From: a virus
Taxonomy: Duplodnaviria > Heunggongvirae > Uroviricota > Caudoviricetes
DNA: 25,688 nt
Reading direction: 5' to 3' (one strand)
IMG/VR virus record: IMGVR_UViG_2627853701_000015
This document shows, piece by piece, positions 6,368 through 20,146 of this stretch. The stretch's first letter is position 1. The number at the start of each line of letters is the position of its first letter. A model generated the notes under the pieces. It was not told the DNA's origin and searched no databases. It saw nothing but the letters and a program-made list of their open reading frames with translations. A program made the position numbers and the translations under genes.

Positions 6368-7212
6368 TTATCTACCCTCTTTAATTTCCACAACAGTCCG
6401 GATGAATTTATCCGGGTTCAGGTAGTTCCTTATTATGTGTATATAAACCACCTGCGCACGCATTTTTTATTTAGCGTCACATATTGATTTTATGGAATTT
6501 AAAGCCCGATTAAACCATATAAAATGACATAATAAATACCATGCCTGCGGACTATAAATACAGGAGCATTAATAGGAACTACCATTCACCCAGGGTTTAC
6601 TATCCTATGGGTCATTGCACCTGATAGTGCTAACCCCACCGCCAATACAGCAAGGCAGTACAACTTCTACACGAGGCCTTGCATTGCAGGCCCCAATTTC
6701 CGGGCATATTTTTGAATCGCATCCAACTTATAAACATTGGGCCTGCATAAAAACCTTGATATTAAATAACATCACCTTAAATCGTAAAATATATCCGAAT
6801 GAATCCATAAAGAACCGGACAGATCTAGTTTTATAAAAATCAGTATGAAATGCAACACCATGGCCAGAGGCGAAAATGTTATTCCCCGGCAAAAACATGC
6901 AGTCTATTTATGTGCCTGTTGAATACTCCTGAATAAGGGTGAATAGTGGTGAGGAGCAAAAAACAAATAGCTACGAGGAATAAAAAAACCACCCATTATG
7001 AAAAAATACCATAAATAATTTTATTCCCATGTGAACAGTTATGAACAGTCGATGAATACTGCCATGCCAACCCTTCACCTTATAACCTTCTGTATTACCT
7101 ATTTTTTTTACCTAAGTGAATAGTAGTGAATAGTTAAGGTAAGTCTGAAACAGCCTTAGTTAAACGAGGCCTTTTCTGGCTAGCCAAAAGAGGTCCGGGG
7201 CGGTTCAGTCTT

Positions 7213-7230
7213 TGTCTTGTCGCTCGCACA
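7213..7230 (+). promoter_or_regulatory. TGT-N12-ACA dyad, candidate Ogr/Delta activator site of the late promoter
   Basis: TGTcttgtcgctcgcACA lies ~70-90 nt upstream of the ATG at 7301; P2/P4 late promoters carry this dyad near -55. Confidence 0.5.
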
Positions 7231-7300
7231 ATGGCGTTCAATGGCAGCTTTGTATGCATCACAGCACAATTGACACCACGACAAACCACTAGGTGCTGAC

Positions 7301-8053
7301 ATGACAATCCCAGAACAGAACAATAACCCGATCGTTGAAATTTCTATCCCTGTTTCGACGCAACAGGCGCTTGAGAAAGTGAATGCCACCAAATCTGCAT
7401 GGCTTGAAGCACGTCGTCAGCAAAAAGCGGCAGCGGATAATATTGCGACAATCCGCCAGCGCCGCGCTGAAATGGAAGCCACGACGAACGCCCTGAATGA
7501 GGAGTGGCGCACGCTATTTCGTGAAAGTCAGGGCGTAGTCTCAAAGGAAATGAAAAAACTGCGCACGGAAATTGCGCTGGGACGAGAAACGCTTGAGGAT
7601 TTTGATGAGCTGCTGGCGGCTCAGGAAAGCGAAAATGCACTTTTGCCGCAGGAGGCTGCGGAATTAGCCGGAAAGTATATCCACGCGCACGACACCCTTG
7701 TGGGTATTCGCGCAAAACAAATCTGGGAAGATTTTATGCAGTCGCATGGAAAAGCACTAATCCAGACACTAAGCCTGCTCAAATCAACAATGGGCAGGGA
7801 AGCCAGCGCAGTTGTCGGTGTGGTGCATTCAGTTAATGACCCGGACACACTGCTGAAAGATTTTATTCATAAACATATCACCAGACCGGCTCTGACTAAC
7901 GATGCGATGCCCGAACAGGACCCCGTGTTTAAACTGGCGGGAGTTGCCCCGGATTATGCGGCCCGTCTGGATTTCAGTAATAAACTCTCTCCAGCAGCTA
8001 TGCATAAAATGAAGGTTCGTCAGGAACGTGCTGAGAAGGAGAAAGCAGTATGA
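7301..8053 (+). CDS. P4 Sid-like / Psu-family late protein
   Basis: 250-aa ORF with AGGTG 5 nt before the ATG; first gene of a coupled operon ahead of the psu-like and delta-like genes; size matches Sid; assignment by position and size only. Confidence 0.5.
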   Translation: MTIPEQNNNPIVEISIPVSTQQALEKVNATKSAWLEARRQQKAAADNIATIRQRRAEMEATTNALNEEWRTLFRESQGVVSKEMKKLRTEIALGRETLEDFDELLAAQESENALLPQEAAELAGKYIHAHDTLVGIRAKQIWEDFMQSHGKALIQTLSLLKSTMGREASAVVGVVHSVNDPDTLLKDFIHKHITRPALTNDAMPEQDPVFKLAGVAPDYAARLDFSNKLSPAAMHKMKVRQERAEKEKAV

Positions 8054-8601
8054 TGGCCCGAGTCACTCCAGACCAAGCGCTTATCAGTTTTAGAAATGCC
8101 CGTATTCTGTGGGCTGGACATAGTGAGAGCCGAAAAGCCGTTGAACAACAGATAGAATCACTCCTCACTGCCATGGAAAAACCAGCAGATTATGCTCGAC
8201 AGCTCGAATTACAGCGGGAACATCTGGATGTGCTGAAATGGCAAATTAACTGTGCTGCGCGCGAATGCATTTACTCGCAGCATCAACTGATGGAGGCCTG
8301 CACAGAAGACGCTCTCAGCAATTTTATGCAGGCGAATGGAGCAGCCCTGACATCTGCACTGGCTCCGTTCCTGAAGGGGCGCGGAGGGGTTGACGTTGCG
8401 TCCCGTATATTACGCAATGCTCTGGTTCGCCAGCTGGCAATAACACCGCCTGAAATTGCCGGGGATTATCGTATGATTCTGGATGAATCCGGTGTGATGC
8501 CTGACCCCATGATGGTTCGTGATTGCCAGAGCTCTTACACCCCTGCACAACAACTGCGCTTTCAGCAACGTCTGGATTACATTAACGGCATGCAGGAGTA
8601 A
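8050..8601 (+). CDS. psu: Psu-like polarity-suppression protein
   Basis: 183 aa; 'KWQINCAAR...FMQANGAALTSALAPFLKG...TPAQQLRF' resembles P4 Psu as I recall it; ATGA-coupled to the upstream gene. Confidence 0.6.
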   Translation: MMARVTPDQALISFRNARILWAGHSESRKAVEQQIESLLTAMEKPADYARQLELQREHLDVLKWQINCAARECIYSQHQLMEACTEDALSNFMQANGAALTSALAPFLKGRGGVDVASRILRNALVRQLAITPPEIAGDYRMILDESGVMPDPMMVRDCQSSYTPAQQLRFQQRLDYINGMQE

Positions 8602-8606
8602 TATTA

Positions 8607-8879
8607 ATGGCACTTAAATGTCCCGAATGCGGTACGACGGCACACGCCAGAACCTCCGCCTATGAAGCACCATCGGTTAAACGCTCATGGTATCAGTGCC
8701 AGAATCTTGAATGTTCCTACACATTTACCGCACTGGAAAGTGTGGATACGATAATCATGAAGCCCCGGCGCAATGAACAGGAATCAGAGAAAGCACAAAT
8801 GCCGGAAAAACAACAGCAAACTCTCAATCGCTATGGCTCCGCGTCAAAGCTGTCAAGCCGTCAGCAAATTCCTGTCTGA
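8607..8879 (+). CDS. Ogr/Delta-family zinc-finger late-gene activator
   Basis: 'CPECGTTAHARTSAYEAPSVKRSWYQCQNLECSYTF' is the C-x2-C...C-x4-C Ogr/Delta zinc-finger pattern; 90 aa, a single Ogr-like unit. Confidence 0.85.
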   Translation: MALKCPECGTTAHARTSAYEAPSVKRSWYQCQNLECSYTFTALESVDTIIMKPRRNEQESEKAQMPEKQQQTLNRYGSASKLSSRQQIPV

Positions 8880-8900
8880 TTAGCAAAAAAAGCCCACGTA

Positions 8901-8926
8901 ATCCCGGTCCAGTACTGGGATTTTTT
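8901..8926 (+). terminator. rho-independent terminator after the late operon
   Basis: Hairpin TCCCGG-loop-CTGGGA followed by TTTTTT, directly after the delta-like stop. Confidence 0.5.
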
Positions 8927-9232
8927 ACGCCTTTTCCCTGGCTGGCCTGAGAGCGCATGAGTGCATGTCTATAGCGCATGAAAACGCATGATTCTCATGC
9001 ACCATTTTTGACGCGAAAGCCCTTGTGTGGTGGCTTCTGAGACGATTTGCGGAATGCATGAAAACCAGTCTGTTAAGCGAAGCGAGCAGGCGTGGGGGGC
9101 TGCGCGCGCTAAGGGGTTAGATTATAAAATATCAAACGCCGGTGAGATCCATTATTGTGGAACCACCCGAAGGAAGTGTAGAGGCGAAAGTACCCAAAAT
9201 AATTTTGCAAATTATTTAGAAATGAACTGAGC

Positions 9233-9258
9233 GCTCGAAACGAAATATAATTTCGAGC
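9233..9258. repeat. inverted repeat at the 3' end of the hotspot operon
   Basis: GCTCGAAA-N10-TTTCGAGC between the hotspot operon end (9289) and the upstream module; no U-tract, so terminator function is uncertain. Confidence 0.3.
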
Positions 9259-9288
9259 ACCCCAATTAGCAGTTATATTTTTAATGTA

Positions 9289-9855
9289 TTAAACAGGATA
9301 AAAACCAGAGCTTCCATTCTTATTTAAGTTATGGATTTTATTTGCATCATTAATTTTTATTTGGAACGTCGGACCTTTATTCTCAAGAATTACAATCTGG
9401 AAATTATAGTCCCTTTTGATTAATGCGTGATAAAATGAATCACTGAGACTGACGCTATTAACATCCGATAGAGAACCCCCTCTATCTTTATCAAAGTGCG
9501 TCACTAATGGACTATCAAGCACAACAAATCCAATGAATGGATTCCCTTTTCTTGATAAAAATTCCGCAAAGCAAATGGTAAATATAGCATGCATTACTGC
9601 ACGGGTACCTTTACCAAACATTCCTCGGCGTTTCCCATTGATATTAAAGTCATATGTATCTTCGTCAAATCGCACTTTGTTATCTTTAGAATTTTCAAAA
9701 TTTATATCATTCAAAAAGTCTTGCATCGCTATTTCTATATCATACAAATCAGCTACTGTTAAGGAGTCAAAGTCCTCGGCGGAGTATTTAAGTTCGTCAA
9801 CATCATCTTCTTTATCTTGTAATGAAGATAGAATGCTATGTTTTGTGTGATCCAT
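9289..9855 (-). CDS. ABC/SMC-like ATPase, C-terminal head segment
   Basis: 188 aa; signature-like 'FGKGTRAV', Walker-B-like 'FIGFVVLDSP', D-loop-like 'THFD'; start ATG overlaps the upstream stop (TAATG at 9853-9857); ~28% GC. Confidence 0.55.
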   Translation of the reverse strand: MDHTKHSILSSLQDKEDDVDELKYSAEDFDSLTVADLYDIEIAMQDFLNDINFENSKDNKVRFDEDTYDFNINGKRRGMFGKGTRAVMHAIFTICFAEFLSRKGNPFIGFVVLDSPLVTHFDKDRGGSLSDVNSVSLSDSFYHALIKRDYNFQIVILENKGPTFQIKINDANKIHNLNKNGSSGFYPV

Positions 9856-10445
9856 TAAAAGATTGTCTTTATATTCATAAAGTGATTCAAGAGATGAATG
9901 TATTGTTTTATATTTTTATCTTCTAACGTCTTAAAATCACTTTTTTCTGATTGATAAATTTCATTAACATCATTTTTTCTTAACATAATTAATTCATGTT
10001 CGCGAACATTAGATCCGATTGATTCAATTAATCCTTTCAGCTGGCTTTTGATTTTCAATTTTTCTGCATTACACGACAAAAAACAATCATCATATGATAT
10101 TTCATTTTCTTTTTTTTGCGGTGTATTACAGAACTCACAATAAATATCTGCAAAATTATTTAAATAGAAATTCGCCTGTGATACAACATCTATTCTTTGT
10201 AGATCTATAAAGTATTGGTCTTTAAGAAGACTAAATCTTTCAATGAGTAATGATAAGTATTTTTCCCTGTCACTGATTGAATATAATTCATCACTTAACT
10301 CTTTTAATAATTGCTTCTTATCATCAAGTGCATCAACAATACCTTTCAATATATCTTTCGATGATTCAATATCTTGCTCTACTTTCTCAAGTTCTCTTGA
10401 AACAATGACTTGATCATATTCAGGATAAATTAATTGCGCTTTCAA
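9855..10445 (-). CDS. coiled-coil segment with Cys4 cluster; probably the central part of the same ATPase
   Basis: Charged heptad-like repeats; C-x2-C ... C-x3-C cluster (CEFC ... CFLSC) mid-segment; no in-frame ATG or RBS, and the frame continues upstream to a single TAA at 10476-10478 that ends the Walker A ORF. Confidence 0.45.
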   Translation of the reverse strand: MKAQLIYPEYDQVIVSRELEKVEQDIESSKDILKGIVDALDDKKQLLKELSDELYSISDREKYLSLLIERFSLLKDQYFIDLQRIDVVSQANFYLNNFADIYCEFCNTPQKKENEISYDDCFLSCNAEKLKIKSQLKGLIESIGSNVREHELIMLRKNDVNEIYQSEKSDFKTLEDKNIKQYIHLLNHFMNIKTIF

Positions 10446-10475
10446 TTCCTCATAAATATTTGCAATTTGATTTTT

Positions 10476-11108
10476 TTAAAAATATCTTGCTTTTTTATTT
10501 GGTTTTTCTGCTAAGGAGTTAGTATCATCTCTCTGAGTTAAAAGGAATTTAAATTCAGACTTTCTTTTTGTCTCCTCGCTAGGAATATCAGAAAGAATTA
10601 ACGACTTCTCAGTTAACACTCTTAATTCATCAATACAAAAAAATTCAAAAACATTATTAAGATTAAATTTATGAAGAGTATTACTTAAGTTTGTTCTTAC
10701 TTTAGCCTCTTTGAAATTCAACCTACCATAAAAGTATGATGAAAAACTCTTTTTAGACGAAGCACTTTTGGAAAAAACCATCAACAGATTAGCTTCACTA
10801 ACATTTTCAATACTCGAATCATATAATCTGTAATGGGCGCTATCCTGAAGAGACCTCTCAATTGTCATTACCCTACCTTGAAAATTAAATTCCAGATAGG
10901 CTAAATCATAACCTTGAGCATGATCGATATCTTTATTTTTTAGTTTTTCACTCCCTAATAAATATCGAATCAAATAATATATGTATGTTTTTCCAGAGTC
11001 AGAACCACCATATAAAATAGTCAATTTAGAACCAAATTCAATTATAGCATCTAATTTATTGAATCCGGTTACCTTTATTTTTCTGAACGTAAAAAAATTG
11101 TCATTCAT
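10476..11108 (-). CDS. ABC/SMC-like ATPase, N-terminal head segment (Walker A)
   Basis: 'FRKIKVTGFNKLDAIIEFGSKLTILYGGSDSGKTYIYYLIRYLLG' is the N-terminal strand plus P-loop pattern of RecF/SMC/Rad50-type ATPases; ATG at 11108 overlaps the upstream stop (ATGAATGA). Confidence 0.6.
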   Translation of the reverse strand: MNDNFFTFRKIKVTGFNKLDAIIEFGSKLTILYGGSDSGKTYIYYLIRYLLGSEKLKNKDIDHAQGYDLAYLEFNFQGRVMTIERSLQDSAHYRLYDSSIENVSEANLLMVFSKSASSKKSFSSYFYGRLNFKEAKVRTNLSNTLHKFNLNNVFEFFCIDELRVLTEKSLILSDIPSEETKRKSEFKFLLTQRDDTNSLAEKPNKKARYF

Positions 11109-11559
11109 AATTAAATTCCATATCATATTTGCCAATTTTATTTTTTATAATTGATTGCAACTGCTCATCAGGAATATCACTATATAACTTAACCACCAAA
11201 TTTATATTATGCTCCATCTGCGCAACATATTCATTATGTAGAGAATTTGTAAATGCATATGTTTTTTCAGAAGCTTTATATACAAAACCACGATGTGTAT
11301 AAATTTTTGAGGCTAGTTCATAGCCTTGCAACAAAGCCAATGATTCTAAAACAATCTCTCGTTTTAGGGCTAACTGAGCATCTCTACGGGGTATTGGAGG
11401 ATGAAGACTAATCTCTTCAGGTAAAAAATCCTTAAGATTTACTAAAATAAAATCAAAACAAATAAGCCGTTCAAGGCTTAATGAAGAAGGATAAATAGCG
11501 ACGAGCACTTTCGCCATTCGACATGCCACTTCTAAACTTGAATTATAAATTCTAACCAT
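11101..11559 (-). CDS. hypothetical small protein, middle gene of the hotspot operon
   Basis: 152 aa from the ATG at 11559, which overlaps the upstream stop (TAATG) and has GGTGAG just upstream; the ORF track extends it to a TTG at 11574. Confidence 0.5.
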   Translation of the reverse strand: MVRIYNSSLEVACRMAKVLVAIYPSSLSLERLICFDFILVNLKDFLPEEISLHPPIPRRDAQLALKREIVLESLALLQGYELASKIYTHRGFVYKASEKTYAFTNSLHNEYVAQMEHNINLVVKLYSDIPDEQLQSIIKNKIGKYDMEFNYE

Positions 11560-12176
11560 TATCTCACCGTCCAAATTACTTCACCATCATTAACCAAATG
11601 ATGGCATATTCCTTTTTTATCATTTGCTTCACATATTTTTGATAGTACTGAATGTGCAATTGGTGTCAGAACAGCCTGCTTCAAGACTGCATTACACCTA
11701 ATAAATGCATAATTATGGTCTTCATAAAAGACGGGTTCAATTGAAGATGAAATGTAACATTTCAATGCTTTGAATACATCATCTTTAAATACTTCGCGGA
11801 CAAAAACCTCAAGCGAAGATGCAAAATAAAAATCATTTCTACTATTATTAAAGTGTCGTCTGTATGGATCATCAAGCTCTAAGAAAGAACTATAAGTTTT
11901 ATTTCCATGCTCTGAATAGGCTTGAAGCAGTGCATTAACATATACAGACTCTTTTTTTGAATTGTATGTTGGAATTTCATTTGGAGGGATTCTCACGACA
12001 TACAGCTCGTTAAAGTACTTAAAATAAAGGTGTGTATTTGCAATATCATTTAAAATCAATGATAAGGGTAGAGAGTAAAAAATACTAAAATCAAAATCCT
12101 CAATATATTTTTTTATTTCATCATCTAATGGAATATCAATCTTTTTAGTTATTTTTTTGAAATTGCTGAATCCCAT
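11559..12176 (-). CDS. hypothetical protein; possibly the C-terminal part of the nuclease gene
   Basis: 205-aa ORF with no RBS, overlapping the upstream ORF by 28 nt across an A7 tract (12152-12158); a 1-nt change there would fuse the two frames into ~335 aa. Confidence 0.45.
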   Translation of the reverse strand: MGFSNFKKITKKIDIPLDDEIKKYIEDFDFSIFYSLPLSLILNDIANTHLYFKYFNELYVVRIPPNEIPTYNSKKESVYVNALLQAYSEHGNKTYSSFLELDDPYRRHFNNSRNDFYFASSLEVFVREVFKDDVFKALKCYISSSIEPVFYEDHNYAFIRCNAVLKQAVLTPIAHSVLSKICEANDKKGICHHLVNDGEVIWTVR

Positions 12177-12565
12177 GAATCAAGGACTGCTTTTTTAAGC
12201 TCGTTTTTATTTTTCAATAAATTAGAAAATGTAGTAGATAAATCATAGGGTGCCACAAAAAAGTACTTCTGAGGGATGGGATAATCACCATTCAGAGTAA
12301 AATAGATAAGTTTTCCAAACTCAACTACAACATCAGAGAACCCTAAACTTTTTTTGTACAGTTTGCATTGATAATTATCCCAAGAATAACCTTCTACGTT
12401 AGGATCCGATTTATATCCAACAACGTCTCTACCTTTATCTCCAGCTCCTCCCAAACGTTCGCTCCACGGGTAATCATCTGATTTACAGACAATAAGCCAA
12501 TCATGGACAAATACCTCCCATTGTTCATCATCCCATGTCAATATTTCCGAAAGTGGTTGAGACAC
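12149..12565 (-). CDS. Mrr-like PD-(D/E)xK restriction-endonuclease-fold domain protein
   Basis: 'WEVFVHDWL...GGAGDKGRDVVGY...YQCKLYKK' matches the Mrr catalytic-domain pattern (G-x-G-D-x-G-x-D then Q/E-x-K); GTG start with AAGGAG 7 nt upstream, 3 nt after the int stop. Confidence 0.55.
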   Translation of the reverse strand: MSQPLSEILTWDDEQWEVFVHDWLIVCKSDDYPWSERLGGAGDKGRDVVGYKSDPNVEGYSWDNYQCKLYKKSLGFSDVVVEFGKLIYFTLNGDYPIPQKYFFVAPYDLSTTFSNLLKNKNELKKAVLDSWDSAISKK

Positions 12566-12568
12566 AAA

Positions 12569-13657
12569 TTAACTCCTTTTTAGTCTTTCAAATATCAAAT
12601 TACTGTACCAGTCCATCATAGACTTCCTTCCACTAAAATATTGAGCATGGTTATAAGTCCCCCTAATAGAATTTTTATCTACATGAGCCAACTGGATTTC
12701 AATCCAAGCACTCTCAAAACCTTGCTCATGCAGGATTGTAGAAAGGGTATGACGAAAACCATGTCCAGTGACTTTTCCTCCATACCCAATACGCTTAATG
12801 GCTTGATTTATACTCGCTTCGCTCATTGGCCTATTCGGATCGTTCCGCCCTGGAAAAACATAACGATAGTTCCCTGTCATGATCTTGAGTTCATTGAGTA
12901 AATCTACCGCTTGAGATGATAAGGGCACAAGATGTGGCCTACGCATTTTCATCCTTTCAGCAGGAATTTCCCAAATAGCGTTATCCAGATCAAATTCTTG
13001 CCATAATGCCGCGCGTAATTCGATGGTTCTCACACCCGTAATCATCAGTAATTTCGTGGCTATCTGGACAAGCTTACTCCCGGAGTAACCCTCTAAGGCA
13101 CGTAGAAAATCAGGTATCTCATCAGCTTTTAGGAATGGGAAATGATTGGATTGGTGTACTTCGAGAGCGCTGGAGAGATCAGCCGCAGGATTGTACTCCG
13201 CCCTACCCGTTGCAATTGCGTAGCGAAACACCTCTCCCACAGGCCTTGTTCCGACATAAGGAAAAATGTCGTTCTTAAACGCTTCCATGATGTCTGATGC
13301 ATATCCCGCCGACCATTTAGCAGATTTAAGTTGATGCCACTCTCTGGCTATCTTTTCGAAGGCGTTCTCTGACTCTGTTTGCATAGCTAGCTTTTGCTCT
13401 TTTCGAACCTCACTAGGGTTCTTTCCTTCTGCCACAAGTTTTCGAGCTTCATCACGACGGGAACGAGCATCGGCAAGGGTGATCGTTGGGTAAACACCAA
13501 GCGAGATCATTTTGGGTTTGCCGGCATAGCGATAGCGGAACCGCCAACTCTTGCTTCCATTAGGTTCTATAAGTAATGACAACCCTAGCCCATCTCCAAA
13601 TGTATAGGCTTTAGCTTCAGGCTTAGCGCGGCGAATCTGCATATCGTTTAAAGGCAT
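12569..13657 (-). CDS. int: P4-type tyrosine integrase
   Basis: N-terminus 'AKPEAKAYTFGDGLGLSLLIEPNGSKSWRFRY', catalytic region 'GHGFRHTLST...AHVDKNSIRGTYNHAQY' (R..H-x-x-R...Y); directly downstream of a tRNA 3' end. Start set at the internal ATG (MPLND...); the ORF track extends to 13708. Confidence 0.9.
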   Translation of the reverse strand: MPLNDMQIRRAKPEAKAYTFGDGLGLSLLIEPNGSKSWRFRYRYAGKPKMISLGVYPTITLADARSRRDEARKLVAEGKNPSEVRKEQKLAMQTESENAFEKIAREWHQLKSAKWSAGYASDIMEAFKNDIFPYVGTRPVGEVFRYAIATGRAEYNPAADLSSALEVHQSNHFPFLKADEIPDFLRALEGYSGSKLVQIATKLLMITGVRTIELRAALWQEFDLDNAIWEIPAERMKMRRPHLVPLSSQAVDLLNELKIMTGNYRYVFPGRNDPNRPMSEASINQAIKRIGYGGKVTGHGFRHTLSTILHEQGFESAWIEIQLAHVDKNSIRGTYNHAQYFSGRKSMMDWYSNLIFERLKRS

Positions 13658-13709
13658 GTGTATAGGAATCCAGACCGAACAGGAACATATACACAATCCT
13701 ATACACATT

Positions 13710-13819
13710 CAGTACCGGATTCTACTGGATGGTTACGGACTACTATGGACTTAAAAGAATAAAAAATGTTATAAATCAGAGATTTTATGGACTAATACGG
13801 ACGTTTGAGGAAGTTGAGA
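13710..13819. repeat. att arm region with short direct repeats
   Basis: Repeated GGACTAC/TATGGACT/TACGGAC words between the int start and the tRNA core, as expected for integrase arm-type sites. Confidence 0.35.
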
Positions 13820-13865
13820 TGGTGCCGATAATAGGAGTCGAACCTACGACCTTCGCATTACGAAT
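13820..13865 (-). other. 3' 46 nt of a tRNA-Thr(CGU) gene: att core, not an intact tRNA
   Basis: Reverse complement TTCGTAATGCGAAGGTCGTAGGTTCGACTCCTATTATCGGCACCA has half the anticodon stem, CGU anticodon loop, T-arm GGTTCGACTCC, acceptor 3' strand and CCA; sequence 5' of it (>13865) is not tRNA. Confidence 0.7.
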
Positions 13866-14212
13866 TATAAGAATCCGCTTCTAATTCAAAGCATTACCCC
13901 ATCAACACTGCGCTCACACGTCCCACCACATCAAAACATGTAAAGCCTTGCAAGCCATTGCGAGGCCTTATGTGTCTCAGTTTTGTCCCACCTTGTATTA
14001 CGACTTGCATAGCCAATGAAGATAAACGTGACGACAAACGGCGCAGCAGTCTTCTTTTCTTTCACGACTTCTCCAGCATGCATACCTTTCTGCCATGACT
14101 GAAGTGAATGCCTGTTATGAGCAAGGATTGGCCCAGATGAATCGCCCTGGACTGTTGCGATCGTGAAGCCATAGACTGGGCCGCAAGCACGGGAGGTTAC
14201 GATAAAGCGACA

Positions 14213-14578
14213 GTGCAGGATGTCATGTTAGGAGCGATAGAAAAACGCTTTGGCGATAAAGTACCGGAACAGTCCATCCAGTGGCTGACAGATAACGGTT
14301 CAGCGTATAGAGCGCATGAAACACGGCAGTTCGCCAGAGAGTTGAATCTGGAGCCCTGCACAACGGCAATCAGCAGTCCTCAGAGTAATGGAATTGCAGA
14401 AAGGTTCGTGAAAACGATGAAGGAAGACTACATCGCGTTCATGCCGAAACCGAATGTAAGAACGGCATTGCATAATCTTGCAGTGGCGATCGAACATTAC
14501 AATGAAAACCATCCGCACAGTGCGTTGGGTTATCGCTCTCCGCGAGAATATCGACGTCAGCGGGTAACGTTAACTTAA
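14213..14578 (+). pseudogene. transposase/integrase-core C-terminal fragment (IS remnant)
   Basis: '[10 protein letters not shown]...[11 protein letters not shown]...[12 protein letters not shown]' is the C-terminal DDE-transposase pattern; upstream frames are broken, so only a ~120-aa remnant is readable. Confidence 0.55.
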
Positions 14579-14619
14579 GATACCCCCCCTGTCTGGAAAT
14601 AAGGGGGCAAGAACAATGA

Positions 14620-15363
14620 TCAGATTCCCTGGTGAGTAAGAATTTTACTTTCTGAACTCCTCTGAGAGTATTGACTTGGAGAAACACCAAAATAACGTCT
14701 AAATACATAAGTAAAGTATGAGACACTGGCATAACCACAGACCTTAGCTACTTTACTAATAGGATAACAACGAGTGCTGAGTAAATATTCAGCCATTTGC
14801 ATCCTCTCATCAAGTATGATCTTACTGAATGATACCCCCTCTTCTTTCAATTTCCTCTTTAGTAAACTTTCGCTGAGATATAATCTTGATGATATATCCT
14901 TAAGACGCCATGGTGCAGATAAATCCGTATGAATAATCGTTTTAACTTTAGCCCCTGTGCTTTTCAAACATCCAAACAGAAATACTCCAAATTGTTTTTC
15001 AGAAGAAAATGCAGAGAGACATGTAAAAGCAATAGACTCATCAAAAATTTCTATGTATTCAGCACAGTGATTAGCCCAACTAATTAATCCTTTAATTAAA
15101 CTGAAGTCAGCAAAGTTTATTTTTAAATAAGATGGATATTCCCTACAATCAGAAATATCCCTTAAGTTATTAGCTTTCAAATAGCGACTAATAAACTCAG
15201 CGCCAAAATCCGCCACTATCACTCTTTCAGGATATGTCAGGAAAAAATCTCTAGAGCTAGAGTCGACAAGTACAGATGAACCTCTCTCCAGAAACACACT
15301 CTCTTTTCCGAAATAAACATCAAAGGACTCCAAAATCAATATAACTGAACATGTAGTTGCCAT
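14620..15363 (-). CDS. AraC-family transcriptional regulator
   Basis: 247 aa with C-terminal AraC-type HTH 'ISKVAKVCGYASVSYFTYVFRRYFGVSPSQY'; AT-rich (~33% GC). Confidence 0.75.
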   Translation of the reverse strand: MATTCSVILILESFDVYFGKESVFLERGSSVLVDSSSRDFFLTYPERVIVADFGAEFISRYLKANNLRDISDCREYPSYLKINFADFSLIKGLISWANHCAEYIEIFDESIAFTCLSAFSSEKQFGVFLFGCLKSTGAKVKTIIHTDLSAPWRLKDISSRLYLSESLLKRKLKEEGVSFSKIILDERMQMAEYLLSTRCYPISKVAKVCGYASVSYFTYVFRRYFGVSPSQYSQRSSESKILTHQGI

Positions 15364-15945
15364 ATCATCCCCCCAATTTAACTGAAACCAGGATGAAGTA
15401 TATGTATATAAAGTTCACTTTGCCAAACTTCAGTATAAAAAACCACTAAAAATAGGGTGTGATAAAAAATACCGTAACAATAAAGCAAAGGATTATAAAT
15501 TCCGTTACAGTTACAAATGATACTCAAGAAACAATTCCTTAGGAAAAACTTATTTACAGCCAATAAGTAAGACACTTATATGATATCAAGTTTTCATAAA
15601 ACATAACTAGGCTAAATAGCTGCGCCTAATACCGCTACACTTTTGCCAGCCCATGTTTGCCTCCGGGTATTGACCCCTTCTCTACGCAACTTCAGTTCCC
15701 ACCACCAACTTTGCGGCAGCTTTGTAGGATCAATGTCTAAAAGAATAATGGTGACCGATAAGAAAACGACTGAATAACTGCAGATTTTCGCTCAAAACCT
15801 TCCTGTCAGATCCATAGCGAATCAAGTGCTGAATGTCACAGTATCGAACAGAAAACAGTGACGATCTAACCCTTCAAGAATATTCTACGATTGTTCTGTT
15901 TAGGAAAAGCAAGACGGGAAGTCGGGAGATAAGTCATTGATAAAG

Positions 15946-16007
15946 TGGCGGAGAGAGGGGGATTTGAACCCCCGGTAGAGTTGCCCCTACTCCGGTTTTC
16001 GAGACCG
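15946..16007 (-). other. 3' 62 nt of a tRNA-Ser gene: att-type remnant, not an intact tRNA
   Basis: Reverse complement CGGTCTCGAAAACCGGAGTAGGGGCAACTCTACCGGGGGTTCAAATCCCCCTCTCTCCGCCA matches the anticodon-to-CCA part of an E. coli tRNA-Ser as I recall it; the 5' part is absent. Confidence 0.65.
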
Positions 16008-16090
16008 ACCCGATCATCAAACGAAACATAAAATTAGCTCACATTATGAGGAAAGGTATCTTTTTGCGCTATGTAAATTCAAAGGGTTAG

Positions 16091-16960
<870 letters not shown>

Positions 16961-17017
16961 ATCTTCAAGTGGTAAGCATAAACCGCAGCACGATCTTGCA
17001 TACGACGTGCTACGGTT

Positions 17018-17572
17018 TCATTTATCTCCGGCCGGAAACTTCTTATACAGTGTCGATACACCAACATCATAGATGATCGCTACCTTCTGGCGAGGAATTC
17101 CTGCTGCAATTAATCGTCCGGCCTGCGCCCATTGTTCTGGTGTAAGTTTGGGACGACGTCCACCAATTCGTCCCTGTGCGCGAGCAGCTTCCAGTCCAGC
17201 TTTTGTTCGTTCAACAATCAGTTCTCGTTCCATTTCAGCCAGGGCCCCCATCACATGAAAGAAAAAGCGCCCCATTGGGGTACTGGTATCAATAGCATCC
17301 GTCAGGCTGCGAAAATTAACGCCACGTTCGCGCAACTCCTCAACCAGAATGACCAGATGCCGCATACTGCGCCCCAGCCGATCCAGTTTCCAGACAACCA
17401 GAGTGTCACCTGCCGATAATGTCCTGAGCAGTTTTTTCAGTCCCGGCCTTTCGGACTTTGTACCGCTTATCTTGTCTTCAAAAATCAGCTCGCATCCTGC
17501 ACAGTTCAGCGCATTACGTTGTAGATCTGTGTTCTGGTCATTTGTTGACACACGTACATAGCCAATAAGCAT
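17018..17572 (-). CDS. pin: Pin/Hin/Gin-family serine DNA invertase
   Basis: 'MLIGYVRVSTNDQNTDLQRNAL...VVWKLDRLGRSM...GRFFFHVMGALAEMERELI' is the serine-recombinase catalytic domain with C-terminal HTH; AGGGAG 8 nt before the ATG at 17572. Confidence 0.9.
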   Translation of the reverse strand: MLIGYVRVSTNDQNTDLQRNALNCAGCELIFEDKISGTKSERPGLKKLLRTLSAGDTLVVWKLDRLGRSMRHLVILVEELRERGVNFRSLTDAIDTSTPMGRFFFHVMGALAEMERELIVERTKAGLEAARAQGRIGGRRPKLTPEQWAQAGRLIAAGIPRQKVAIIYDVGVSTLYKKFPAGDK

Positions 17573-17626
17573 GGTAGATCTCCCTGACAAAAGCAGGAAT
17601 GATGCCATTTGCTCGTTATTTCTGCA

Positions 17627-17652
17627 TTTTCATAAACGTTGGTTTGGGAGAA
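17627..17652. repeat. invertase crossover site, left
   Basis: TTTTCATAAACGTTGGTTTGGGAGAA is the inverted partner of the site at 19485-19510. Confidence 0.65.
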
Positions 17653-18012
17653 GCGGCAAAACGGGATGTGGGGACAGGGGAAAATCAGATACCGGACATG
17701 GCCTCTTTTGCCAGTGGTAATGGTTGGATGAAATTACCCAACGGGAAAATCCTGCAATATGGTCGTGGTGCGGTTACGCCGACATTATCGACGCAAACAA
17801 TGAGAATTACATTCAGCATCCCTTTCCCCAAAAAAGCGGACTGCGCCATGCTTACTCATTCTGGTGATGGCGGTGCGCCTTTAGGCGCTGGGCGAGGGTT
17901 CGTGATGACTGCAGAAGGCCCAACGTTAACCGGCTTTAATTCTGCTTACAGAACGTCATCAACCAGCGACACGGTATCGATGAATTACAGTTGGTGGGCT
18001 GTTGGTGAGTAA
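17653..18012 (+). other. silent alternative tail-fibre C-terminal cassette
   Basis: Reading frame inside the invertible segment, opposite orientation to the expressed fibre gene, followed by its own assembly gene; would be fused to the constant part after inversion. Confidence 0.5.
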
Positions 18013-18023
18013 TTTTATTCAGG

Positions 18024-18476
18024 GTGATTTATATGGACGAATATGTTTATAGCGCAAGGCATAATGCTTTTTTCCCTGTGGATATGATTGATAAATATAA
18101 ATCAGAGGGATGGGATTTATCAGACGCTAAGGAAGTAAATCAAAATATTATCAGTGAGTTTATGGCTGAACCGCCACAAGGAAAAATCCGTATTGCCGGA
18201 GATGATGGGCTGCCTGCGTGGGCAGATATTCCTCCACCCACGCATGAAGAGCTTATTGAAATTACTGAATCAGAAAGACAGCTACTAATTAACCAGGCCA
18301 ACGAATACATGAACAGTAAGCAATGGCCCGGTAAAGCCGCTATTGGTCGTCTGAAAGGTGAGGAACTGGCGCAATATAATTTGTGGCTGGATTATCTGGA
18401 CGCACTGGAACTGGTCGATACTTCCGGTGCGCCAGATATTGAATGGCCTACGCCTCCGGCAGTTCAGGCCAGATGA
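18024..18476 (+). CDS. tail fibre assembly protein (alternative cassette)
   Basis: 150 aa; C-terminal 'APDIEWPTPP' is shared with the opposite-strand paralogue; sits directly after the silent fibre cassette. Confidence 0.65.
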   Translation: MIYMDEYVYSARHNAFFPVDMIDKYKSEGWDLSDAKEVNQNIISEFMAEPPQGKIRIAGDDGLPAWADIPPPTHEELIEITESERQLLINQANEYMNSKQWPGKAAIGRLKGEELAQYNLWLDYLDALELVDTSGAPDIEWPTPPAVQAR

Positions 18477-19041
18477 CATCCGGCGCGGTGCTGGTATCTG
18501 TTGCCGTCACCGCGTCAATGTAATCCAGCACGGCGTTAAGTCGGGTTGTTTCTGCCTGAGTCAGTTTCCGTCCGGCCTGTAACTTCAGCTGAATCAGACT
18601 AATGGAAGCCATTGCTGCATCAATCAGTGATTGGCGCTGTGCTTCTGCCGCGTCTACTGCGGCACTGTGTTGTGCCTCAGTGTCTGTCACCCATTTCTCA
18701 CCATCCCATTTATCGTATGGCGTTAACGGTGAAATCGTGACATAACCGTCTTTGATGGCACCGATATAATCCACTGTAACAGCTGCGCCATTTTCGATTG
18801 AGTAAACAGTCTCATTGCGATGGTCTTCTTCATGGCTCCATCCCTTACCTGTAAATACTGCCACTCTTCCCGGAATGTTTTCGCCAGGGTCAATACCAGT
18901 GGAACAGGCGGGCATACTTACGCCAGTATTAATATATTCATCAGACCAGCCCGTATACTCAGATGTTTCAGCATCATAATAAAAACAACGCATATCGCCC
19001 GGCACTGTAGCCAGCCCATTTTCATCAAAAACAGGTTTCAT
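18448..19041 (-). CDS. tail fibre assembly protein
   Basis: 197 aa; start overlaps the fibre stop (ATGA at 19041); C-terminal 'APDVIWPELP' paralogous to the other cassette. Confidence 0.7.
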   Translation of the reverse strand: MKPVFDENGLATVPGDMRCFYYDAETSEYTGWSDEYINTGVSMPACSTGIDPGENIPGRVAVFTGKGWSHEEDHRNETVYSIENGAAVTVDYIGAIKDGYVTISPLTPYDKWDGEKWVTDTEAQHSAAVDAAEAQRQSLIDAAMASISLIQLKLQAGRKLTQAETTRLNAVLDYIDAVTATDTSTAPDVIWPELPEA

Positions 19042-19835
19042 TATTTAGCCCTCACCAGAAAGTTAAATGCAATATTTCGCGGTCTGACTGCAACAAAATT
19101 CACACCATCACCCACAGAGTTACTGGTGAAATTAAATCGTGAAAATCCTGGCTGATTTCCGGCGATGCCATCATGAAAGTTAATTGCGTGTCCCGCACCT
19201 TCGCCTATATTCCCGGCAAACTGAGAAAAGTTTGTAGCTGCCTGCCAGCTTAATAATTCGCGACCACCGTCTGCACCTCGCCCGTCATCCCAGATACGAA
19301 TGAAATCACCGCGGGCTTCAGGTAATACCAGCGAAGGAAACACTTTCGCCAGCACAGGATAATCAGTGGCAGAGAATTTCGCGCCGTTGAACTTCAAAAA
19401 CACCATACAGGACCAGCTGTCGATTACAGTATTTGGCATTGCAGCGGACGGCCAGAAGAACGGAACGCCAATAGCTGGAGCACCTTCTCCCAAACCAAGG
19501 TTTTGAAGAGCCGTTTTCACCGTGCCGTCCGATTTGATATCGCCAAACGGATTCTTGCGGCTCAGGTATTCAACAGCAAACCCCGATCCCAGCAATTCAA
19601 CAAAACCGGGCAGATCACCATTATCAAGCACATCCCGTTGCGTTTTATCACTTACAAACTGGGCCAGAGCTGCAGCAATAAAGCTGGCCTGCCGAATAAC
19701 CTTATTGACTTGCGCACTGGATGCTTTCCCTGCTGTAAATCCGGATATAAGCGCAGGCAACGCTTCCCATTCCTCCTGCGACATAACATTGGCATTTCGA
19801 TCAGTTGCAAACGCTTTAAAGTCATTTTTCGCCAT
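19041..19835 (-). CDS. side tail fibre protein, constant N-terminus joined to the currently expressed variable C-terminus
   Basis: 265 aa from 'MAKNDFKAF...'; the crossover site at 19485-19510 lies inside the gene, so the C-terminal ~150 aa belong to the invertible segment. Confidence 0.7.
19485..19510. repeat. invertase crossover site, right
   Basis: TTCTCCCAAACCAAGGTTTTGAAGAG; its reverse complement matches the site at 17627-17652 at ~21 of 26 positions. Confidence 0.65.
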
Positions 19836-20146
19836 CAGAGTAATACTCCCCATGCCCCTACATCAAAACCACTGATGAATTCGTTATCCATATCAAAACC
19901 AAAAAATTTAGAGCCTTCCGATGGAGTTTCCACCGAAGGTGTTTCAATGCCCCCCGCCCATACCCCGGCGGCTTTTACTGTTAGATACCCCTGTTTAATT
20001 GCCGCAATTAACTCACGCGATACATCTGAAATATCAGTATCAGGAAAGACCCAGACCGATATCGTCATGTCCTGGTTATCGATGTTGGCGATCCGACGCA
20101 TCTGCTCACGGTCAAAGTTAACCATCTGTGCGGCGATGTTTTTCAT
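19835..20146 (-). pseudogene. lambda P-type gene truncated after ~21 codons and fused to the 3' end of a tail-module gene
   Basis: 'MKNIAAQMVNFDREQMRRIAN' matches the lambda P N-terminus as I recall it, with ATGA overlap to O; the rest is unrelated and ends at the fibre start. Confidence 0.6.

Follow-up and report, generated by a model that had tools for sequence, protein, structure and literature searches.

A predicted Mrr-like nuclease domain beside a prophage integrase of Escherichia coli O157:H7 appears to be the front part of a decayed Lamassu system

Does the short open reading frame (ORF) that follows the integrase gene of a P4-like prophage encode a complete DNase, or is it part of something larger? 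The question arose from a 25,688-nucleotide stretch of DNA, here called the window (IMG/VR record IMGVR_UViG_2627853701_000015, Caudoviricetes), in which a sequence-only reading had named the first ORF after int a probable DNase effector with a Mrr-type PD-(D/E)xK catalytic motif. The ORF lies on the reverse strand at 12149..12565, has a GTG start, encodes 138 amino acids and corresponds to ECs_0290 of E. coli O157:H7 Sakai. Its position next to the integrase is borne out: the int stop codon is at 12569-12571, the ORF starts 3 nt past it, and an AGGAG Shine-Dalgarno sequence stands 8 nt upstream of the GTG. The protein read from the ORF is MSQPLSEILTWDDEQWEVFVHDWLIVCKSDDYPWSERLGGAGDKGRDVVGYKSDPNVEGYSWDNYQCKLYKK..., and its translation includes ...ERLGGAGDKGRDVVGYKSDPNVEGYSWDNYQCKLY.... 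Our answer is that this ORF is very likely the N-terminal effector domain of LmuA, from a Lamassu system of the short type II kind (LmuA-LmuC-LmuB) that sits in the variable ogr/delta-int hotspot of the P4-like satellite prophage Sp2 and is now decayed.

The locus corresponds to ECs_0289 (intS) to ECs_0293 in prophage Sp2 of O157:H7 Sakai, which is annotated as a "P4-like phage." According to the RefSeq annotation, the element runs from primase through an Icd-like gene, a sid-like gene, Psu, Ogr/Delta and the cargo to the integrase. Variable cargo thus has the integrase on one side and the psu/delta late-control genes on the other, as in P4-like satellite hotspots. The Psu of this element is only about 31% identical to P4 Psu (PMC11754643). 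The P4-type tyrosine integrase gene intS (ECs_0289; 12569..13657, reverse strand), directly upstream of lmuA, was identified by Pfam and tblastn and has the domains Arm-DNA-bind_3, Phage_int_M (positions 1-44 only) and Phage_integrase. In comparison with Sakai, FORC_044, NE 1092-2 and O55:H7, int in the window lacks 93 bp at 13231/13232. The loss is in frame, removes 31 amino acids (IKPLELLNVLRKIEKRGALEKMRKVRQRCSE) of the central domain and has no flanking direct repeat. Every one of the best-matching complete E. coli genomes listed has the 93 bp, and their absence here may reflect a deletion specific to the strain or an artefact of assembly. On the right-hand side of int, at about 14144-19853, are a partial IS3-family transposase (an ISEc48 remnant), an AraC-family regulator (14620-15363), a GIY-YIG (LEM-3-like) protein, a Pin-type invertase and tail-fibre or tail-fibre-assembly genes; the Sakai annotation treats this region as the remnant lambda-like prophage Sp1, which abuts Sp2.

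The catalytic core motif, GGAGD43KGRD47VVGY ... YQ66CK68, was delineated by residue invariance, alignment with Mrr and modelled secondary structure. It spans 12362..12451 on the reverse strand, with GGAGDKGRDVVGY encoded by 12413-12451, D43 by 12437-12439, D47 by 12425-12427 and YQCK by 12362-12373. The sequence-only reading had put the first block at 12421-12450, which is right to within a few bases, missing one base at the upper end and eight at the lower; its spacing of 20 residues to YQCK was about right, with 19 residues from D47 to Q66. In a six-frame translation of the whole 25.7-kb window, the pattern D-x-G-x-D-(10-30)-[EQ]-x-K has a single match, the one in this ORF. Among 58 homologues, which share 29-61% identity with the first sequence of the alignment, a Xenorhabdus protein (P0001), the residues W23, G42, D43, G45, D47, Q66, K68, K85, P98 and W131 are invariant, as they are in a smaller alignment of 41 family members. 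E17, G40, C67, E82 and G84 are nearly invariant in both. Because the motif occurs only once in six frames and its residues are invariant in divergent homologues, it is not a chance match.

We then considered whether the protein has the fold of a nuclease. An AlphaFold2 model of the 138-aa ORF (mean pLDDT, 91.9) has helices at 13-27 and 76-91 and strands at 34-37, 48-51, 62-67 and 100-104. This alpha-beta-beta-beta-alpha-beta topology is that of the canonical PD-(D/E)xK core, so the outcome that would speak against the domain, the lack of such a fold, did not occur; the helix expected ahead of the motif is the one at 13-27. In the model, D47 is just before strand beta2 (48-51) and Q66-C67-K68 is at the end of beta3 (62-67). 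Together with the core fold, the protein therefore has the conserved acidic residue at beta2 and the (D/E/Q)-x-K at beta3 that characterize the PD-(D/E)xK superfamily. A D...QxK configuration is the hallmark of Mrr, and the family of the 138-aa ORF has it, with Gln replacing the usual acidic residue. Indeed, hhalign aligned the family profile with the E. coli K-12 Mrr sequence at an E value of 5.5e-4, pairing ERLGGAGDKGRDVVGY of the family with QRVGGTGDGGIDGVIS of E. coli Mrr and YQCK with VQAK. D43, D47, Q66 and K68 are thereby matched to D199, D203, Q219 and K221 of E. coli Mrr.

The comparison with the Pfam profile of Mrr nucleases gave a more divided result. The 138-aa ORF is below the threshold for Mrr_cat (PF04471), at 12.2 bits and an E value of 0.2 versus a cut-off of 21 bits, and the HMM check proposed for it consequently fails for the ORF itself. 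Its residues 15-79 align to positions 5-66 of the 115 in the profile. Three distant homologues pass the cut-off in the same profile region (P0043, P0103 and P0120, with 25.0, 26.7 and 28.6 bits, respectively), and 7 of the 41 family members match Mrr_cat at an E value of ≤0.01. Every match in the family ends at profile position 62-66 of 115; the remaining part, alpha2-beta4, is structurally present in the AlphaFold2 model and divergent in sequence. E. coli Mrr itself matches Mrr_cat at 1.5e-39, whereas the 138-aa ORF corresponds only to the first ~66 of those 115 positions. E. coli Mrr (EcoKMrr) also differs in having a Mrr_N modified-DNA-binding domain, which is absent from the LmuA of the window, whose nuclease is instead tied to an SMC-like sensor. 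The reading of a Mrr-type PD-(D/E)xK domain is nevertheless supported by the model, the hhalign match and the three relatives that pass Mrr_cat. We regard the Mrr-like assignment, made from sequence comparison and a structural model, as sound; cleavage activity itself is predicted.

The domain appears to be only the first part of a longer protein. The PADLOC LmuA profile (PDLC03852) matches the 138-aa ORF with its positions 10-140 and continues with positions 141-333 of 336 on the next ORF, 11559..12176 on the same strand (E value, 3.9e-44). This second ORF, ECs_0291, also matches Pfam CTD6 (7.7e-30) and comprises the 3′ fragment of lmuA (homologous part, 11562-12155), with a linker and CTD6, the domain for LmuB/LmuC binding and oligomerisation. 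When LmuA of Xenorhabdus and Serratia was used in tblastn, residues 3-138 aligned in one frame and residues 138-335 in the adjacent one. The switch at residue 138 is at a run of seven A's (A7; 12152..12158, reverse strand) in the context TCA AAA AAA TAA. With eight A's, this site would read S-K-K-I-T-K-K and join both lmuA ORFs; the homologues have ...SKKISKT.... Loss of one A (A8 to A7) has split the gene, and the nuclease domain ends at residue 138.

A search with the joined lmuA as query found full-length homologues of 334-337 amino acids in Xenorhabdus, Aeromonas, Serratia and Yersinia, with 57-67% identity over 99-100% of the query, and about 150 more distant relatives besides. CTD6 was present in 40 of 40 sampled. 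Nearly all of the homologues have 324-381 amino acids with CTD6 fused, and the few shorter entries include the 3′ fragment from the window genome itself; none of the homologues found with the joined query is an N-terminal nuclease domain standing alone. No full-length LmuA closer than 67% identity was found in a search of 5.8 billion proteins. The features of an LmuA are recognizable here: there is an effector domain and an ABC-3C C-terminal domain, though the frameshift separates them; profiles place lmuC and an SMC-like lmuB on the adjoining downstream ORFs; and the fold resembles that of experimentally solved LmuA, a link to the solved structures that is at the level of fold only. Profile tiling, homologue lengths and the frame switch identify the 138-aa ORF as coding for the nuclease domain of LmuA, in a type II Lamassu operon whose lmuA is frameshifted. 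By sequence comparison, then, it is the predicted N-terminal part of an LmuA of about 335 amino acids, the effector of a type II Lamassu (ABC-3C) system, and not a complete gene.

The rest of the operon follows directly. The PADLOC profiles for LmuA, LmuC and LmuB tile six same-strand ORFs end to end; none of these ORFs matches an NCBIfam model. lmuC (ECs_0292; 11101..11559, reverse strand) encodes the ABC-3C middle component MC2 (Pfam MC2, 6e-30; PADLOC LmuC, 2.5e-36, matched on ORF 11101..11574). It is apparently intact, with residues 1-152 in a single frame in tblastn, and its start overlaps the lmuA stop codon (TAATG). lmuB (ECs_0293; 9289..11108, reverse strand), which encodes an SMC/Rad50-like ABC ATPase with a CxxC hook (CEFC), is broken into three ORFs, as determined by PADLOC, tblastn and alignment. 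Positions 3-199, 231-412 and 428-608 of the 610 in the LmuB profile (PDLC03863) match ORFs 10476-11135, 9855-10445 and 9289-9855, respectively, and ECs_0293 is already annotated as a pseudogene in Sakai. One of the breaks is a TAA nonsense codon (10476..10478, reverse strand) that is present in O157:H7 only; O55:H7 has TTA (Leu) at this place, and Leu is also the residue in Xenorhabdus. The second break is a -1 frameshift site, ATAAAACAATACAT (9898..9911, reverse strand), located by a frame change in tblastn and by three-frame translations and common to O157:H7 and O55:H7. A run of five A's there would restore ...KNIKTIHSSLESLY..., and the frameshift near 9900 appears to have arisen through loss of one A. 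We also observed a substitution at window position 10812, in the first lmuB fragment, where the window has A and FORC_044, NE 1092-2, Sakai and O55:H7 RM12579 and TB182A have G.

The operon probably ends at a terminator-like hairpin (9229..9262, reverse strand) with a 13-bp stem, 6 GC pairs among them, located 27 nt past the lmuB stop. This site is a pattern match only, from a consensus scan that returned 10 terminator-like sites in 8800-14000 versus 2.5 expected from shuffles. The operon promoter was not located, since a sigma-70 scan of 8800-14000 performed at chance level, with 21 sites found versus 20.5 expected. The uninterrupted lmuA, lmuC and lmuB frames of a functional Lamassu are not present in the window, and the lesions are fixed in the lineage. 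The system in the window genome is decayed, by a frameshift in lmuA and by a frameshift and a nonsense codon in lmuB.

How far does this damage extend? We used blastn against 5,426 complete E. coli genomes and found lmuA-lmuC-lmuB DNA only as copies of at least 99% identity, in 308 genomes, of which nearly all that were listed belong to O157:H7 or O55:H7. A search for an intact E. coli allele by distant blastn, with lmuA and with lmuC-lmuB as queries, found none. All 307 genomes that match the lmuA junction have A7, and none has A8. Both frameshifts of O157:H7, in lmuA and at about 9900 in lmuB, recur in O55:H7 strains RM12579 and TB182A. These two strains have TTA at the equivalent of 10476-10478 and a private A6-to-A5 frameshift in lmuB at about 9941 (9938-9949). 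With TAA in O157:H7 and A5 in O55:H7, the sister lineages acquired an additional inactivation of lmuB independently. In a few O157:H7 strains (e.g., NZ_CP089270.1, 4568646-4574652), the IS3-family element IS1203 is inserted in the lmuB region, which is a further step of lmuB decay in those strains. Judged from these sequences, two common lesions followed by differing later ones form the pattern of a function that would have been lost in the common ancestor, with drift thereafter.

Undamaged relatives show what the system once looked like. The order lmuA-lmuC-lmuB occurs with single ORFs in four unrelated taxa: Xenorhabdus (LmuA, LmuC and LmuB of 335, 152 and 604 amino acids), Serratia (334, 159 and 609), Mesobacillus (366, 170 and 621) and Bacteroidota (354, 158 and 610). 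The Mesobacillus operon adjoins BREX genes, and the Serratia operon lies directly after an integrase and before Ogr/Delta. In Serratia marcescens CP060440.1, the intact integrase-LmuA-LmuC-LmuB-Ogr/Delta locus (6813-12080) is beside proA. It would be a handy source of an undamaged system of this LmuA subfamily for experiments.

Among the characterized systems nearest to this one is Lamassu-Mrr, or type II LmuACB (ABC-3C, REase-NTD plus CTD6, MC2; PF20282 and PF20288), which has the same gene order, lmuA-lmuC-lmuB (10.1101/2022.05.11.491447). Lamassu-Mrr of E. coli SE15 acts by abortive infection and requires the ATPase, LmuC and the effector with its site (10.1101/2022.05.11.491447). Our locus resembles it in the Mrr-like nuclease fused to an ABC-3C C-terminal domain, the MC2-type LmuC, the SMC-like LmuB of about 610 amino acids with a CxxC hook and the place in a defence hotspot of a mobile element. 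It differs in the frameshift of lmuA and the breakage of lmuB into three pieces, and the likeness is one of architecture and profiles. Cap4-type Lamassu systems (Vibrio cholerae DdmABC; Salmonella LmuACB, PDB 9hqx; LmuA, 9nxx) have a Cap4 effector where this locus has a Mrr-like one, and CTD7/MC3 instead of CTD6/MC2. A PDB sequence search with the joined LmuA, two family profiles, LmuB fragment 1 and LmuC found no solved nuclease or Lamassu relative.

In the solved Lamassu systems, LmuB2-LmuC sequesters the C-terminal domain of LmuA, and DNA sensing frees LmuA; freed LmuA tetramerises through this domain, pairing two nuclease domains into an active site, and DNA is degraded and the infection aborted (10.1101/2025.03.14.643221; 10.1101/2025.04.02.646746). 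Isolated N-terminal domains of LmuA are toxic or active only if dimerised, by the C-terminal domain or by an artificial zipper (10.1101/2025.03.14.643221; 10.1101/2025.04.02.646746). By analogy, intact Mrr/CTD6/MC2 relatives probably work in the same way, with the mechanism carried over from Cap4-type systems. An LmuB dimer with LmuC would hold one LmuA through its C-terminal domain. Release of LmuA would follow when phage DNA ends or replication intermediates are sensed and ATP is turned over; the freed LmuA may then oligomerise by CTD6 and pair its nuclease domains into an active site made of D47, Q66-x-K68 and probably E17 and E82. The active enzyme would cut DNA indiscriminately and abort the infection.

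The catalytic motif of the 138-aa fragment is perfectly kept. The fragment is without the domain for regulation and activation, and the sensor, lmuB, is broken, so it is most likely inert, a disarmed remnant rather than an active effector. The proposal of a probable DNase effector directly after int therefore stands as to the nuclease domain; the ORF, however, is the front fragment of a split LmuA. Could it still be a free-standing small Mrr-like DNase, the effector or toxin of the hotspot, as first proposed? It has its own GTG start with a strong ribosome-binding site and a complete, confidently folded PD-(D/E)xK core with the motif in place. We nevertheless think this very unlikely. Homologues are nearly all CTD6 fusions, none being the N-terminal domain alone, and the ORF stops at a homopolymer frameshift exactly where they go on. 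Moreover, the isolated nuclease domain of a solved Lamassu needs dimerisation for activity (10.1101/2025.03.14.643221), and toxicity would be expected of an unregulated nuclease without an immunity partner. If the gene were instead intact in the organism and the frameshift an error of sequencing or assembly, the error-prone nature of homopolymers would account for it, and the window does have the 93-bp int deletion that the best-matching complete genomes listed lack, as well as a substitution absent from the five compared genomes. This explanation has practically no chance of being right: A7 in 307 of 307 junction-matching genomes, sequenced on many platforms, and A8 in none excludes it, and RefSeq and the curated Sakai annotation call identical split ORFs.

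It is also conceivable that the split is bypassed by programmed -1 ribosomal frameshifting or transcriptional slippage at A7 and that LmuB assembles non-covalently, which would leave a Lamassu of low output, the published "Lamassu-var." The A_AAA_AAA heptamer is in the -1 phase with TAA directly after it, and a slip gives the S-K-K-I-T-K-K found in homologues. The lmuB frameshift is in the coiled coil, and split SMC-like ATPases may in principle re-associate; furthermore, a weak anti-T-even phenotype has been published for the O55:H7 allele (PMC11754643). We consider this bypass unlikely. The slippery run is not conserved, with ordinary codons in its place in Xenorhabdus and Serratia, and there is no stimulatory RNA structure downstream of A7 (z = +1.17), so programmed frameshifting at A7 is not supported. 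Slippage could not bypass the lmuB lesions either, which lie outside slippery heptamers. The further and differing lesions in O157 and O55, and IS1203 in some strains, are what neutral decay predicts, and the published clone is without the lmuA ribosome-binding site and promoter. A broader version, in which the fragmented operon is alive as such, is a long shot. In it, a non-covalent assembly would form from the Mrr-like domain, the CTD6 piece, LmuC and the fragments of LmuB, or A7 would be a slippage or recoding valve for a trickle of full-length LmuA. If true, this would explain the weak anti-T-even effect of "Lamassu-var," and all O157:H7 would have kept an SMC-type immune sensor that is split by nature or throttled by recoding.

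The decayed LmuA-LmuC-LmuB system has been in the literature. In the Domainator study, this hotspot forms the largest cluster (cluster 1), with 259 of 910 E. coli Psu-integrase hotspots, "3 to 9 CDSs" and the description "related to Lamassu systems" (PMC11754643). "Lamassu-var" was cloned from O55:H7 TB182A (CP038295, 4,116,517-4,120,474), and it made plaques of T2, T4, T6 and RB69 smaller, only at the highest dilutions (PMC11754643). It is the same locus, with 99.8% identity over window 8501-13231. The insert (NZ_CP038295.1, 4116517-4120474) corresponds to about window 8607-12565, from the ogr/delta start codon to the first base of the lmuA GTG; since it ends at this base, it has neither the lmuA Shine-Dalgarno sequence nor an upstream promoter. 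The cloned allele carries three frameshifts, one in lmuA and two in lmuB: compared with the window, the O55:H7 allele has TTA for the TAA nonsense codon but the extra A6-to-A5 frameshift in lmuB. The words frameshift, pseudogene, split and truncat- do not occur in the main text of the study, which treats the locus as a functional variant and does not describe mutant controls for "Lamassu-var" (PMC11754643). The reported plaque effect, a claim of some residual activity, is weak evidence against decay, because the insert is without the lmuA Shine-Dalgarno sequence and upstream region and the allele has three frameshifts.

What the window holds, then, is a real, if predicted, nuclease domain. The system to which it belongs is decayed, is of a known family validated by experiment and lies at a locus already published. 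In the annotation of O157:H7, ECs_0290 and ECs_0291, now two "hypothetical proteins," should become one frameshifted lmuA pseudogene (Mrr-like N-terminal domain plus CTD6), and the locus is to be labelled a decayed Lamassu-Mrr-type system. The system counted as commonest among P4-like hotspots of E. coli (259 of 910; PMC11754643) is one locus passed on clonally, with three frame-disrupting lesions in each lineage examined (O157:H7 and O55:H7). As the locus is clonal, has three lesions and was cloned in a construct without a ribosome-binding site, the reported function of "Lamassu-var" needs retesting. Recognisable defence pseudogenes are reported to be rare in P4-like hotspots (PMC13586616), and the decayed lmu locus is a counter-example to this rarity. 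Knowledge of Lamassu or Mrr nucleases is unchanged by it; the gains are a corrected annotation and caution about the activity of "Lamassu-var."
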